A stretch of DNA of 64,000 nucleotides from a virus (IMGVR_UViG_3300034105_003151:87301-151300); one strand, 5' to 3'; positions 20,073-42,917 are shown, numbered from the stretch's first letter. Translations and numbers: made by a program. The notes: a model not told the origin generated them from the sequence alone.

Positions 20073-20116
20073 CCCCGCCCGATTCGTCATAAGTCTTTAC
20101 GCAGTAAGGGTTTAGG
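20073..20116. repeat. Element A copy 1 (single palindrome plus variant GC core)
   Basis: CATAAGTCTTT-acgcagt-AAGGGTTTAGG preceded by CCCCGCCCG. Confidence 0.75.
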
Positions 20117-20128
20117 TCGAGTGTTGAC

Positions 20129-20143
20129 GCAAGTGGTGTGCCG
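20129..20143 (-). promoter_or_regulatory. sigma54-type -24/-12 site
   Basis: CGGCACACCACTTGC (GG-N10-GC). Confidence 0.6.
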
Positions 20144-20213
20144 TGTGTGGATGAGGAAAAAAAGATTGTGGTTTGGTATGGAAAATTATTTTGAGATTTT
20201 CTAGATTTTTCTC

Positions 20214-20241
20214 TTGACGCTGTCGATAAAAATGGTATAAT
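20214..20241 (+). promoter_or_regulatory. sigma70 promoter, first of roughly 40 similar plus-strand promoters (e.g. 22655, 27218, 28862, 30740, 31955, 38653, 39298, 39909, 45252, 54696, 55319, 57539)
   Basis: TTGACG-N16-TATAAT; the others are TTGACA-N16(17)-TA(T/G/A)AAT or TATACT, usually followed by a purine-rich RBS. Confidence 0.85.
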
Positions 20242-20281
20242 AGAAGCACAAGAGAAAACGAAGGATAGCGGAGAGAAGATC

Positions 20282-20497
20282 ATGAAGAACTACTTTGGCA
20301 AGGCGATTGCCCCTAACGCTGACGTTCAGCGACACAACGAACAGATCGCTCACCTGCGTGAACAACTTGCTAATGCAGAAACTAACAATGATGGGAGTCG
20401 TTGTGCCAAGATGGAAATCGAAGCCTATCAAAACTTCCTTCGTATCGCTCTGGAAAGCAAGGCCAACGTTGCCTCTACCATGTTCAAGAGGAAGTGA
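20282..20497 (+). CDS. Early hypothetical protein
   Basis: GGAGAG RBS, first ORF after the promoter at 20214. Confidence 0.7.
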   Translation: MKNYFGKAIAPNADVQRHNEQIAHLREQLANAETNNDGSRCAKMEIEAYQNFLRIALESKANVASTMFKRK

Positions 20498-21016
20498 GAA
20501 ACCTTACGATTTTGTAAGGAAACTTTCTCATTGACAATCCCTTTCCTAGACGATAAAATACAAGCACAAGAGAACACAAAGGAAAAAGAAATGACTACAC
20601 TCTATCGGGTTGAATTGCATTCGGAAGGCTCTACGGTCTATCTTCTCACGAATAAGGGTTGGGCTGATATCGTCCATTTCAAGGAAAATGCCGAATATCG
20701 TGCCAACGCTTGGGTGAAGAATCAAGAGCGACTTGACCGAATGGACAATGGCTGAACCTTACGGAATTGTAAGGAAAGAAAGCTGTTGACATCCCCACAC
20801 AAAGACGATAAGATACTAGGACACAAAGGAAAAAGACAATGAAGACTTTCTATATGTATGAGGCTGTTGGCAACGAGTACCGATATTGGGGTACGTTGTT
20901 TGCCGACAACTGGGTTGATGCTAGGGCTACAGCGGTTAGCCTTTGGGGTATCTCCTTTGGCAACATTGTTGCTGCTAGTACTCGCCTTCCCTTCTCTATG
21001 GTTACGGAGTGAACAG

Positions 21017-21205
21017 GTGAATAGGTTTGATGGTTACGATACGATAGAGTTGGGTAAGAGGCTTGTGCAGTTCCAGGCTGCTCTGGAGAAGTGTACGCCT
21101 GAACAACCTAACGCTCGTACATATATCAGAGAGATGATTCGTGCTATCGCCCGTGAACTACTGTATAGGTATCGTCAAGAGACTGAGCTACTGTACAGTA
21201 AGTGA
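21017..21205 (+). CDS. Small helical protein, paralog of 23125..23307
   Basis: GGAG RBS and GTG start; YDTIELGKRLVQFQ...ARELLYRYRQET. Confidence 0.7.
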   Translation: MNRFDGYDTIELGKRLVQFQAALEKCTPEQPNARTYIREMIRAIARELLYRYRQETELLYSK

Positions 21206-21239
21206 TCATATGTACACTCATAAGCACCTAAGACCTTGA

Positions 21240-21321
21240 CGTAAAGCCTTACTGCATAAGGACTTGCGACAAGGCGGGCGGGCCGCATTTGACGTAAACC
21301 CTTGTGGCGTATAGACTTACG
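21240..21321. repeat. Element A copy 2 (double)
   Basis: CGTAAAGCCTT-N7-AAGGACTTGCG, GGCGGGCCG, CGTAAACCCTT-N7-ATAGACTTACG; 53-bp period. Confidence 0.92.
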
Positions 21322-21356
21322 ACTGTACTATCTAAATTACGCTACTAGAGCCCTGC

Positions 21357-21373
21357 TTGGCACGGTATTTGCA
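21357..21373 (+). promoter_or_regulatory. sigma54-type -24/-12 site
   Basis: TTGGCACGGTATTTGCA matches YTGGCACGRNNNTTGCW. Confidence 0.75.
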
Positions 21374-40301: not shown

Positions 40302-40374
40302 GGGATGCTAGCTCAATTGGCAGAGCAAGGAGCTTTTAACTCCGAGGTTCAGGGTTCGATTCCCTGGCGTCCCA
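40302..40374 (+). tRNA. tRNA-Lys(TTT), second copy with its own promoter
   Basis: GGAG-CT TTT AA-CTCC; promoter at 40263. Confidence 0.92.
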
Positions 40375-40854
40375 CTAAAAGGAAAAGACTAATGCAAGAA
40401 TATGAGTTTAACTACAGTATACTTGCAGAGGATGCCGATGATCTGTTGGTGGATTGGGAAGAGAACGAAACGGTTTTTGATTATTACTTTCACAAATTGG
40501 TAGAGGAGATTTGGGATGGCAACGAGGGAAAAGATCAGGAATGTGCCCAGTATTGAGGAGCTTCGAAGGGATAAGTGGAAGGTAAGAGTTTATCATGCCA
40601 GAGTATGGTTTGATCATTATGAAGCTGTTGATTATCTAATGAGTATGAAAGAAGCGAAGAAGCTACTTTCTGATTCCACTTCTACTGTGCTATTGAGTCT
40701 TTGTACTGGTGGCTATACTCGCATAGACTTTACTAGTCCTACTGGCGAAGAATATTCCACAAAGCATAATACTGCTTCTACTAAGCAGTTCAATCGTAAG
40801 AATAGTATCAGGGCGTGTCTTGGTCGATTTGTCATGCAAAGGGGTTGATCTCAG

Positions 40855-41325
40855 ATGATGAATGAGCCTGTTAGTCATCGTCTCGTTGACGGTCGCGTTA
40901 TCGGTGGAGCAGATCATACTTCACGGGTATTAAATCATAAATCTAGAAATAAGATTGTGGTGCAGGCTGTTTGTGATCTGAGAAAGATCGAGAACACCTT
41001 TGACAGCATTGTTATTACTGGTATTAGTGGCTTGCTTGTTGGACCCGACGTAGCATCTATCCTGAATAAGCATATTGTAGTAATAAGAAAAAGTACGGAG
41101 GGTTGTTATTCTCCGTTTATCATAGAGGGTGTTATCCCTCATAACTACATTATTCTGGACGATCTTATCTGCTCGGGCAAAACTGTGAATGGTATTCTAA
41201 AAGTACTAAAAGACGAGTGTCCTCGTTCTAGATGTTCTGGTGTCTACTCTTATCTTAAAGAACATTGTGCTTACCGTTCCAATCCTAAACTCTGTAGACG
41301 AGATTTAGGTATTGACTATCTATAA
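40855..41325 (+). CDS. Type I phosphoribosyltransferase-like protein
   Basis: PRPP-binding motif YIILDDLICSGKT; GISG...VVIRK. Confidence 0.85.
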   Translation: MMNEPVSHRLVDGRVIGGADHTSRVLNHKSRNKIVVQAVCDLRKIENTFDSIVITGISGLLVGPDVASILNKHIVVIRKSTEGCYSPFIIEGVIPHNYIILDDLICSGKTVNGILKVLKDECPRSRCSGVYSYLKEHCAYRSNPKLCRRDLGIDYL

Positions 41326-41337
41326 TTAGTCACTCGC

Positions 41338-41419
41338 CGTAAGTGCTTGTCCCTAAACGACTTAGGGCAAGCCCGGCCCGCCCCGCCCTCCGTAAGTCCT
41401 TACGTCACAACGACTTAGG
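41338..41419. repeat. Element A copy 15 (double, core inverted)
   Basis: Palindromes start at 41338 and 41391; core CGGCCCGCC. Confidence 0.92.
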
Positions 41420-41431
41420 ACGAGTCTCCAC

Positions 41432-41448
41432 AGCAAATGCCATGCCAA
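41432..41448 (-). promoter_or_regulatory. sigma54-type site
   Basis: TTGGCATGGCATTTGCT. Confidence 0.72.
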
Positions 41449-41791
41449 AGATTTTTCTAAAGATCTTCGCTTGACTCTGCCGATACTTATGGTATCATAG
41501 CTGAAAAGGAGAGAACGATGGTTGCTGCTGCTAATGGTTTGGATACGGTTGTCCATATTCCCTGTCATGTCTGCTCCAGGGATTATATTGTACTCGTTAA
41601 TAACGAGGATATGACTGATTATCTTTCTGGGTCTGATCTGATTCAGGATATCATGCCATATTTGTCGGACAATGATCGTGAGATGATTATATCCTCGACT
41701 TGTGCCGATTGTTGGGACAAACTTTTCGGTTGACAAACCGATTTCGTCTGGTAAAATACTCAAAGAAACCTAAACACTAAGGAAAAAGAAA

Positions 41792-42760
41792 ATGGCTCAC
41801 GGTATCGAAAATCGGAATGGTCGAGATTGCATGATGTATGTTGGAGATACTCCCTGGCATACTCTTGGTAAGCCAGTACCACCGGATATTTCTGTGAAGG
41901 ATGGGATCAAGGCCGCTGGTATGGATTGGGAAGTCGAAACGGTAGAGATGTTGACGGTTGACGGTCAACCCGTTCCTATGCGGCTGGCTGTTCGTCGTTC
42001 GGATGATAAGCGTATTCTGGGCAGTGTTGGTCCGCGTTATACTCCGCTCCAGAATCGCACCGCGTTCGATTTCTTCCAACCGTTCTTGGATGCGGGCGAA
42101 GCCTCGTTGCATACTGCCGGTTCGCTGCACGGAGGCGAGAAGATTTGGGTCTTGGCTCAGGCTAATCGTAGAAATACTGAAATCGTCAAGGGTGATGAGG
42201 TTGCTAAGTTCATGCTACTTAGTAATTCTCATGATGGTACTACGGCTATTCGGGTTGGCTTCACGCCCATTCGGGTTGTGTGTGCTAATACGATGGCTCA
42301 GGCTCACTCGTCTGCGGATAGTAAGCTGATCCGTATTCGTCACACCAAGAATAGTCAGGTTAATTTGGACCGCATTCGGGATACGATGGATGCTATCGAC
42401 GCCTCCTTTGAAACCCATGCGGACCAATTCAAGTTCCTTGCTTCCCGCGATTTTAATCAGAAGGACGTTAGTCAGTATGTGCGTGTTCTTCTGGATATCG
42501 AGGATAAGCAGGAAGCGGATATCAAGACTCGCACTCGTAATACCATCGATGAGATCATGGGATTGATTGAGGGTCCGCGTCAGAGTATGGAAGGTGTTCG
42601 GGGTACTTGGTGGGCCGCTTACAACGGCTTTAACGAGTACCTTAATTACAAGCAGGGTCGCAATGCGGATAACCGTATGGCTTCATTGTGGCTCGGTACT
42701 AATGCTAACGAGAATACTCGGGCATTGGAGTTGGCTATGGATTATGCCAACGCTATCTGA
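41792..42760 (+). CDS. DUF932/DUF945 (TIGR03299-like) phage/plasmid protein
   Basis: MAH...TPWH.LG, Y.PLQN, TAGSL.GG, LLSNSHDGT, TPIRVVCANT, GTWWAAYN. Confidence 0.9.
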   Translation: MAHGIENRNGRDCMMYVGDTPWHTLGKPVPPDISVKDGIKAAGMDWEVETVEMLTVDGQPVPMRLAVRRSDDKRILGSVGPRYTPLQNRTAFDFFQPFLDAGEASLHTAGSLHGGEKIWVLAQANRRNTEIVKGDEVAKFMLLSNSHDGTTAIRVGFTPIRVVCANTMAQAHSSADSKLIRIRHTKNSQVNLDRIRDTMDAIDASFETHADQFKFLASRDFNQKDVSQYVRVLLDIEDKQEADIKTRTRNTIDEIMGLIEGPRQSMEGVRGTWWAAYNGFNEYLNYKQGRNADNRMASLWLGTNANENTRALELAMDYANAI

Positions 42761-42782
42761 TACGTTATAAGTTGTAATAATA

Positions 42783-42818
42783 AGGCCGCTCCTCTTCGCG
42801 GGGGAGCGGTCTTTTTTT
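42783..42818 (+). terminator. Rho-independent terminator
   Basis: GGCCGCTCCTC-loop-GGGGAGCGGTC followed by T7. Confidence 0.9.
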
Positions 42819-42835
42819 ATGGGAAAACGATTTGA

Positions 42836-42917
42836 CGTAAACCCTTGCTGCCAAAGGACTTAGGGCAAAACCGGCCCGCCGCCCTCGACTTAAACCCTTG
42901 ACTCATAAGGAGTTACA
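42836..42917. repeat. Element A copy 16 (double, core inverted)
   Basis: Palindromes start at 42836 and 42889; core CGGCCCGCC. Confidence 0.92.

Follow-up and report, generated by a model that had tools for sequence, protein, structure and literature searches.

The turnover of early 'ORFan' genes in phages has been attributed to repeated regulatory cassettes, and to our knowledge only the promoter early stem-loops (PeSLs) of T4-type phages and the stoperators of mycobacteriophages have been described in any detail. PeSL cassettes are short composite motifs, each a terminator-like stem-loop coupled to an early sigma70 promoter, which recur among the small variable genes of hyperplastic early regions and have been proposed as points of homologous exchange giving modular gene gain, loss and replacement (PMC2839356, PMC4122927). 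Stoperators of cluster A mycobacteriophages, recognized by L5 gp71-type repressors, are single 13-14-bp asymmetric sites that are bound by monomers and distributed genome-wide in temperate phages (PMC9283540, PMC6550527). Here we describe a 78-bp element that occurs in hundreds of related phages and, in 16 copies, between the early genes of an uncultured lake phage, in a stretch of 64,000 nucleotides (IMGVR_UViG_3300034105_003151:87301-151300; the window). We cautiously favor the reading, based on comparison of sequences, that the element is a twin operator, specific to the lineage, in a composite regulatory cassette of the early region, where it would probably tune the first promoter and mark the boundary of the unit.

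The element is like PeSLs in being a composite motif repeated between small variable early genes, in its coupling to early sigma70 promoters (within 250 bp in 136 of 199 copies from related phages, with gaps of 20, 30 and 41 bp), and as a candidate point of homologous exchange. Unlike PeSLs, it is a twin dyad of rigid 78-bp geometry that shows no sign of a hairpin, marks only about one in three promoters, is often accompanied by a sigma54 motif and belongs to an unrelated siphovirus-like clade. Stoperators share with it the tens of copies in short intergenic gaps, the single orientation relative to transcription and a lineage-specific consensus that changes between related phages, but its sites are paired 25-bp dyads, are found in the early region only and lie in a genome with no integrase and no identified repressor. 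As a kind, intergenic operators or regulatory cassettes that recur across a plastic early region are already known in phages, while the anatomy found here, a rigid 53-bp twin with a central GC dyad, the replacement of the dyad in a sister lineage and the coupling to sigma54, appears undescribed.

The earlier note on this sequence had counted 12 full and 4 half copies with 28 palindromes. A scan of the window with the pattern TAARYCCTT-N7-AAGSACTTA, allowing up to three mismatches, gave the same totals: 49 strand-matches representing 28 distinct palindromes, compared with 0.56 in shuffled sequences. The claim that copies are confined to 20-43 kb also held for the whole 151,300-bp genome, in which the scan found the same 28 palindromes, all within window positions 20090-42915, and no other. 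With arms of 9-11 bp around a 7-bp centre (N7), the palindromes form 12 pairs (P1 and P2) and four singles, and the 53-bp spacing that the note described as fixed is exact, start to start, in all 12 pairs. The full copies lie on the plus strand at 21242-21319 (copy 2, with P1 at 21242-21266, core at 21277-21285 and P2 at 21295-21319), 23324-23401 (copy 4), 24686-24763 (copy 5), 25821-25898 (copy 6), 27115-27192 (copy 7), 30175-30252 (copy 9), 33880-33957 (copy 11, with a degenerate core), 34880-34957 (copy 12), 36029-36106 (copy 13), 37379-37456 (copy 14), 41340-41417 (copy 15) and 42838-42915 (copy 16), the last two with a CC-centred core. The half copies, likewise on the plus strand, each have a GC core beside the palindrome: a core followed by the palindrome 20090-20114 in copy 1 (20072-20114), the palindrome 22151-22175 followed by a core at 22186-22194 in copy 3 (22151-22194), a palindrome starting at 28762 followed by a core in copy 8 (28762-28805), and a CC-centred core followed by the palindrome 31899-31923 in copy 10 (31880-31923). 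Most copies in this genome carry the core GGCGGGCCG, with a few T residues after it. The inversion of the core in copies 10, 15 and 16 is real. The core has a dyad symmetry of its own, (C)GGC-SS-GCC(G), and shares its centre with the dyad of the element, so that the inversion amounts to a GG<->CC flip of the two central bases. Among the N7 centres of the 28 palindromes, only two pairs of centres are identical.

The window is the final 64 kb of one 151,300-bp IMG/VR virus record, which has a GC content of 36.5% and is 100% complete according to CheckV. Genes up to ~19.5 kb, among them those for the portal and the large terminase, are on the minus strand; from 20 kb on the genes are on the plus strand, GC is higher (43-45%) and GC skew is positive. 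This plus-strand region contains 26 tRNA genes, many very small open reading frames (ORFs) and ~45 near-consensus sigma70 promoters. Megablast and tblastn searches found no near relative among 50,697 phage records, where the terminase matched best those of Bacillus siphophages at no more than 27% identity. A terminase of 71-77% identity is carried by 376 IMG/VR contigs, several of which are 150-240 kb long, and lake-water metagenomes contain near-identical DNA. The virus is a member of a large, uncultured, freshwater, siphovirus-like phage clade, in which the element represents a third solution, anatomically different from PeSLs and stoperators. The 200 related IMG/VR loci that we collected (2.17 Mb) contain 784 palindromes, with 233 neighbouring pairs exactly 53 bp apart and 21 at 52 bp, and a pattern scan of IMG/VR matched at least 118 stretches. 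The complete relatives G001 and G004 carry 25 and 34 palindromes, respectively, all but one G001 copy being in early regions.

To derive the anatomy of the element, we used the GC skew of the flanks to orient 199 distinct full copies. T-A-A at positions 0-2, C-C-T-T at 5-8, A-A-G at 16-18 and A-C-T-T-A at 20-24 are invariant or nearly so, as are the corresponding positions of P2; the AA at 1-2 and the TT at 22-23, and again their counterparts in P2, are strictly invariant. The 7-bp centres and the outer flanks, already seen to vary among the copies in the window, hold almost no information. Weaker TTGACG and CGTCAA flanks lengthen each dyad from 25 to ~37 bp. The spacer is constantly 28 bp long and has a GC-rich block centred on the dyad axis at position 38.5; outside this genome the block varies in sequence and has no fixed word, so the usual core word of the earlier note stands for most copies here and not for the relatives. 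The consensus of the half-site differs by place, from TAAACCCTT through TAAGTCCTT and again TAAGTCCTT to TAAGTCGTT. Since the preferred version depends on which of the four half-sites is considered, the unit is polar relative to the coding strand.

We compared the copies for signs of base pairing, since the note had suggested a double-stranded DNA-binding platform rather than an RNA hairpin and had named base-pair covariation as the sign that would favor RNA. At every variable mirror position, the Watson-Crick frequency was at or below the expectation from column composition, for example 0.25 versus 0.32 expected at 3/21 and 0.17 versus 0.33 at 62/68, and a C.C opposition at 59/71 was retained in about half of the copies. 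The sole covarying mirror pair in P1 or P2 was -1/25, and a mutual-information matrix with average product correction (APC) showed couplings between neighbouring positions only. In an alignment of 140 sequences, 69.8% of the cells pair compared with 69.3% in shuffles, and pairs changed on both sides numbered 18 versus 22. The outcome was the same, with no compensatory base-pair changes, when the count was redone on 446 partner palindromes that were selected only by AA/TT at four positions and a neighbour 53 bp away, which removes ascertainment bias. Mean hairpin energies, -3.5 kcal/mol for P1 and -1.8 to -2.8 kcal/mol for P2, were near those of shuffles. As a terminator hairpin, the core does not fold better than shuffled sequences do; its excess of short dyads, with 0-2-nt centres, suits duplex DNA rather than hairpins. 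A cloverleaf or long hairpin of the whole element, whether between P1 and P2 or between half-sites 2 and 3, left no anti-diagonal signal in the mutual information, and no copy matched Rfam 15 at E<=0.1. Judged from these 140-446 copies, in which covariation is absent and the predicted hairpins are weak, the element is a double-stranded DNA recognition platform and not an RNA structure, as had been suggested.

The placement of the copies after a stop codon and before a promoter, noticed in the window, extends to the family. The copies are intergenic. P1 begins a median of 4 nt after the end of the upstream ORF (40 codons or more), and sometimes the element's own TAA is the first in-frame stop of that ORF. 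Of 199 family copies, 136 have a sigma70 promoter in the 250 bp that follow. The -35 hexamer lies at preferred distances from the end of P2, with peaks at 19-20, 29-32 and 40-44 bp that persist after clustering at 80% similarity (117 clusters), and periods of 10.5-11.5 bp give the greatest Fourier power for this spacing (p<1e-4). Between P2 and the -35 hexamer, the linkers are T-rich and resemble UP elements. Intrinsic terminators are not in excess in the region (22 versus 15 in shuffles), and none was found at unit ends or elements. Two further motifs accompany the promoters. The ~45 sigma70 promoters at window positions 20214-43058 carry (G/T)CCGATA or GTCGATA in the spacer, in the layout TTGACA-n-CGATA-n-TAGAAT, and so do promoters at 140-151 kb of the relative G002; conserved both in phages with this element (TAA type) and in those with the other dyad described below (CTGCC type), the motif suggests an extra promoter-recognition factor. 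A second repeat, AACCTTACG-N4-TGTAAGGAAA, is present on the plus strand at 20500, 20755, 22624, 22898, 23762 and 25113, within cassettes and ~11 nt upstream of -35 hexamers, a PeSL-like position. It contains CCTTA/TAAGG words as in the main element, with a gap of 10 nt and not 7.

Scanning with TGGCAYG-N4-TTGCW, allowing up to one mismatch, revealed 11 sigma54-type motifs in the window compared with 0.69 expected, each just to the right of an element and within ~150 bp of it, and no other motif in the genome. A single sense motif, TGGCACGGTATTTGCA, lies at 21358-21373 (+), with the P1 and P2 centres at about -130 and -77 of its predicted start. Six motifs form face-to-face pairs at 22202-22236 (22202-22217 on the plus and 22221-22236 on the minus strand), 23438-23472 (23438-23453, plus; 23457-23472, minus) and 25943-25976 (25943-25958, plus; 25961-25976, minus). 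Antisense motifs alone are located on the minus strand at 24801-24816, 34972-34987, 36133-36148 and 41432-41447, and those at 34972 and 41432 begin 15 bp past P2, the predicted start of the former abutting the element. In the family, we counted 75 cases of TGGCA-N6-TTGC downstream of elements compared with 0-2 for the N4, N5, N7 and N8 variants, and the unconstrained positions of the matches agree with the sigma54 consensus. In the relatives, a motif is present at +80 to +160 in 77 of 199 elements (~40%) and almost never upstream; most motifs are antisense, with a peak at +92 that puts the predicted start at the edge of P2. The phage genome encodes neither sigma54 nor an enhancer-binding protein, its sole PF00158 hit being a RuvB-like ATPase: a 297-aa RuvB-like AAA+ protein encoded outside the window at G000:C1:16067-16960 (+) explains the weak Sigma54_activat match. 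No phage precedent for sigma54-type promoter arrays surfaced in searches of full-text literature, a weak negative, as no dedicated search was completed. Three consecutive cassettes share a 150-bp regulatory stretch with 64-81% identity (23457-23606, 24801-24950 and 25961-26110), which holds the antisense sigma54 motif and tandem promoters and suggests that whole regulatory modules were duplicated. In the related locus L095, two stretches (8150-8360 and 9250-9460) contain two or three direct GCAAAATGCTACA repeats between the element and a sense-strand sigma54 promoter, together with a TGCCA-N5-TGGCA dyad ~120 bp upstream of the predicted sigma54 start.

A sister lineage has the same architecture with a different dyad. 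The 159-kb relative G002 (L215/L216) is about as distant from this genome as G004 and has no palindromes of the TAA type described above. Instead, its early region (record positions 137526-150992) contains 14 twin elements of the form CTGCCAAAATGGCAG - 14 bp GC-rich - CTGCCAAAATGRCAG, always 29 bp from start to start around a CCGCGG-like core (CTGCC type). The second dyad ends 23-25 bp ahead of the -35 hexamer in 9 of the 14, and the centre of this proximal dyad, ~32 bp ahead of the hexamer, coincides with the first peak of the TAA type. The first three elements are followed by antisense sigma54 motifs. Phages with either type of dyad have a protein 'a' that is ~88% identical between them. Another 159-kb relative, G003, showed no comparable array. 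Two unrelated dyad sequences in one architecture argue for lineage-specific protein recognition and not for a fixed host factor such as IHF. Among 185,579 species genomes (one per prokaryote species), the twin pattern matched 11 stretches and no isolate genome; most of these stretches are short contigs in freshwater metagenome-assembled genomes (MAGs) with mutually inconsistent taxonomy, and one 141-kb 'bacterium' contig has three hits. We read them as misbinned phage DNA, and the single hit on a 1.37-Mb Aequorivita MAG contig may be due to chance or a prophage.

The genes between the copies, unlike the element, are not conserved. About two-thirds of the ORFs in the region that encode 40 aa or more lack a homologue in the 2.3 Mb of related loci. 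Anchor genes keep the same order in all relatives, and the element-bounded units between them vary in number and content, with a few genes changing slot. Between contigs that are 80-99% identical, 18.6% of the homology breakpoints lie within 10 bp of a palindrome compared with 7.5% at random positions (2.5-fold). In the cleanest close pair, L042/L039, the replacement stops within a gene, 117 bp away from the element. The pattern appears to fit homologous exchange at regulatory modules that recur, in the way proposed for the PeSLs of T4-type phages (PMC4122927), and does not fit site-specific recombination. The sequencing runs listed as containing this DNA included no RNA run. Low-depth Logan contigs from lake metagenomes, considered over 20-40 kb, gave only joints with 20-39-letter sides, located in palindromic cores and tRNA genes; these k-mer-sized repeats are unusable as evidence of excision or inversion.

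We also looked for a protein that might bind the element. Pfam searches with 20 conserved early or neighbouring proteins found no DNA-binding domain. Only two genes are common to this genome (G000), G001 and G004 and absent from G002 and G003, and both are weak leads: P0001 encodes a 110-aa protein with a weak hint of a helix-turn-helix or sigma-r4-like domain, and the other a 573-aa protein of no family. Gene D (26385-26720) is present in 23 of 34 loci with arrays and 0 of 10 without, in a count that ignores phylogeny, but its sequence does not segregate with element type. Gene 'a' (19750-19977, plus), the first plus-strand gene ahead of the array, is found in 66 related loci; its 75-aa product has a KKW...MIRRQRRK helical part and a C-terminal RGRP motif resembling an AT-hook. 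This protein, so similar in TAA-type and CTGCC-type phages, does not segregate with element type either. The element itself provides a precise bait sequence for its binding protein.

The element is conserved at the DNA level without pairing, invariant in geometry, fixed in polarity and consistently placed relative to stop codons and to sigma70 and sigma54 promoters. We infer that a protein binds, what kind of protein it is and that transcription is affected in one direction or the other. Two 25-bp dyads 53 bp apart, that is, five helical turns, would present the same face of the helix, with the GC-rich dyad-symmetric block on the centre of symmetry, and would most likely dock a sequence-specific protein, as two dimers or a dimer of dimers, with a specificity that is not the same in all phage lineages. 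The contacts would lie in successive CCTT/AAGG major grooves, 11 bp apart on one face, and on the same face in the flanking TAA/TTA minor grooves 5-6 bp further out. Two dimers of a helix-turn-helix or winged-helix protein would be expected to bind DNA arranged in this way. A/T-rich flanks of this kind often mark DNA bending. Each cassette would then consist, in order, of a stop codon, the twin operator, an optional sigma54 promoter that is mostly antisense and back-to-back with the next promoter, a T-rich UP-like linker, the sigma70 promoter and small ORFan-rich genes. As the upstream-most component, the twin operator would control how active the first promoter of an early unit is and would delimit the unit. 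Since the module is repeated and conserved and the genes between copies are not, it would be a preferred site of homologous exchange, giving the region its cassette-like look. The array is also a natural system in which operator-specificity switching, promoter insulation and cassette exchange could be studied.

Several observations weigh against a twin operator that tunes promoters. Only 3 of the 16 copies in the window have short distances from P2 to the -35 hexamer (25, 27 and 31 bp for copies 7, 9 and 10, respectively), and only the 31 bp falls inside a family peak (29-32 bp); the other copies are 52-143 bp from the hexamer, often with sigma54 motifs between. In about one-third of the family copies, no promoter can be recognised within 250 bp. 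Three ancestral module variants, and not helical phasing, could underlie the three spacing peaks; linkers inside one peak share sequence patterns. The closeness of the element to the upstream stop would suit a 3'-end or boundary function just as well. Sigma70 promoters that have consensus sequences and UP elements should work without an activator, so that the effect may have either sign. No binding protein was identified, none of gene D, gene 'a', P0001 and the 573-aa protein being claimable as such.

The alternative that overlaps most with the twin operator, and differs from it in the main effect, is a stoperator-like boundary or roadblock. A protein on the twin dyads would halt RNA polymerase as it leaves the cassette upstream, joined in some copies by a sigma54 holoenzyme that is stably bound and faces antisense, and would also stop antisense sigma54 transcripts; it would insulate early units or shut early transcription off later in infection. 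We consider this possible, although rather unlikely as the principal role. The ~45 consensus promoters of a region with no terminator excess and no terminators at unit ends, the start of the element a median of 4 nt past the upstream stop, an orientation fixed relative to transcription as in L5-type stoperators (PMC9283540, PMC6550527), and the antisense sigma54 peak at +92 with its predicted start abutting P2 all agree with it. A roadblock, however, needs neither helical phasing to the next promoter nor a rigid 53-bp twin geometry, no repressor gene was found, and prophage silencing, the role of stoperators, is inapplicable to a phage with no integrase or lysogeny module. Between the two effects, the phased promoter spacing favors tuning of the downstream promoter, and the lack of terminators and the abutment to stop codons favor a block to read-through. 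Alternatively, the dyads may be enhancers, or upstream activating sequences (UAS), for an enhancer-binding protein that remodels the sigma54 holoenzyme on adjacent -24/-12 sites; this is unlikely. NtrC-type enhancers are paired dyads next to canonical -24/-12 promoters, and the CTGCC-N5-GGCAG dyad of the sister lineage has the 5-N5-5 format of NtrC-type sites. The confinement of all 11 motifs of this genome to ~150 bp around elements, and of those in the relatives almost entirely to the downstream side, points the same way, and the three sense motifs by full copies have dyad centres at about -75 to -83 and -128 to -136, a classical enhancer distance. Most motifs, however, are antisense and face away from the element, which places it downstream (+16 and +69) of the predicted start; ~60% of the elements and 11 of the 14 of the CTGCC type have no sigma54 motif, and the phage has no gene for sigma54 or for an enhancer-binding protein, its PF00158 hit being RuvB-like. 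Promoter tuning, a block to read-through and sigma54 control are not exclusive roles. A more speculative combination, to which we give little credence, is that twin operators and back-to-back, mostly antisense sigma54 promoters form one device, in which a phage protein on the dyads and the host sigma54 holoenzyme, either parked in a closed complex or fired when cued, would build bidirectional insulators that divide the early region and would later silence the early cassettes by antisense transcription. If true, this would be a use of sigma54 undescribed for any phage, with operator specificity swapped between the TAA-type and CTGCC-type sister lineages.

Three further explanations are much less probable. 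Sites for host architectural proteins of the IHF, HU or Fis type, of which IHF had been put forward in the earlier note, are very unlikely. The half-site does contain AA-N4-TTR, its A/T-rich outer triplets fit minor-groove compression, and the position upstream of UP-like linkers resembles that of Fis sites at rRNA promoters. Dyads upstream of an A/T-rich UP-like tract are known from Fis and UP at rrn P1, CAP class I promoters and phi29 p4, and the element is like them in promoter distances that step by one helical turn and in paired sites on one DNA face, but its sequences are unrelated to the Fis and CAP sites, its dyads are larger and it has a GC-rich central block. AA-N4-TTR is all that matches of the 13-bp IHF consensus WATCAANNNNTTR (5 of 9 specified positions), which is asymmetric, whereas the element is dyad-symmetric with CGT or CCT ahead of the AA; phages with nearly the same protein 'a' carry either the TAA-type dyad or the unrelated CTGCC-type one in the same places, and the complete phage genome has no HU/IHF gene. 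Slightly less probable still is an element that works as RNA, either two hairpins serving as a terminator, a processing site or a 3'-end stabiliser, or a small antisense RNA. Repetitive extragenic palindromes (REP) and bacterial interspersed mosaic elements (BIME) of enterobacteria are imperfect palindromes in mosaic pairs with a defined linker, outside genes after stop codons. The element likewise has paired imperfect palindromes directly after stop codons. In this genome its GC core is followed by a few T residues, and its A.C mismatches turn into G.U pairs on the minus strand. The lack of covariation, the conserved non-pairing positions such as C.C at 59/71, hairpin energies near shuffles and the absence of an Rfam family speak against RNA, and unlike REP/BIME the element has no hairpin-preserving variation and no associated RAYT (Y1) transposase gene, has a fixed 53-bp geometry and has a polarity linked to the downstream promoter. 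Least credible of all are core sites for a tyrosine or other site-specific recombinase that would excise, invert or shuffle cassettes, the 11-7-11 sites of the earlier note. Their inverted arms around N7 recall lox, FRT and dif with 6-8-bp spacers, and the varying number and content of cassettes, a few genes in other slots and the breakpoints near palindromes would agree with such a role. However, the note's failure to see a recombinase gene in the window extends to the CheckV-complete genome, in which no Phage_integrase (PF00589), Resolvase (PF00239) or Y1 transposase (PF01797) was detected, and the 7-bp centres, which must match for strand exchange, differ save in two pairs and are thus, unlike lox/FRT/dif spacers, not identical between copies. 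All copies are in direct orientation, the anchors are collinear, the L042/L039 replacement ends 117 bp away within a gene, and the metagenomic joints are k-mer-sized repeats only.

Three other features of the window lie outside the array of elements or between its copies. A Pistol ribozyme (Rfam RF02679; 55.2 bits versus a gathering score of 34.5) is located at 35471-35543 (+) between two small early genes. A 99-nt tRNA-like sequence at 31999-32097 (+) scores 41 bits against the Rfam tRNA model, was not called by ARAGORN and has its own promoter at 31955-31982. A nucleotide-sugar epimerase-like gene (PHROG 540) at 17018-18097 (-) is 58% identical in both other TAA-type genomes, and its best match in G002 and G003 is merely 23-26% identical.

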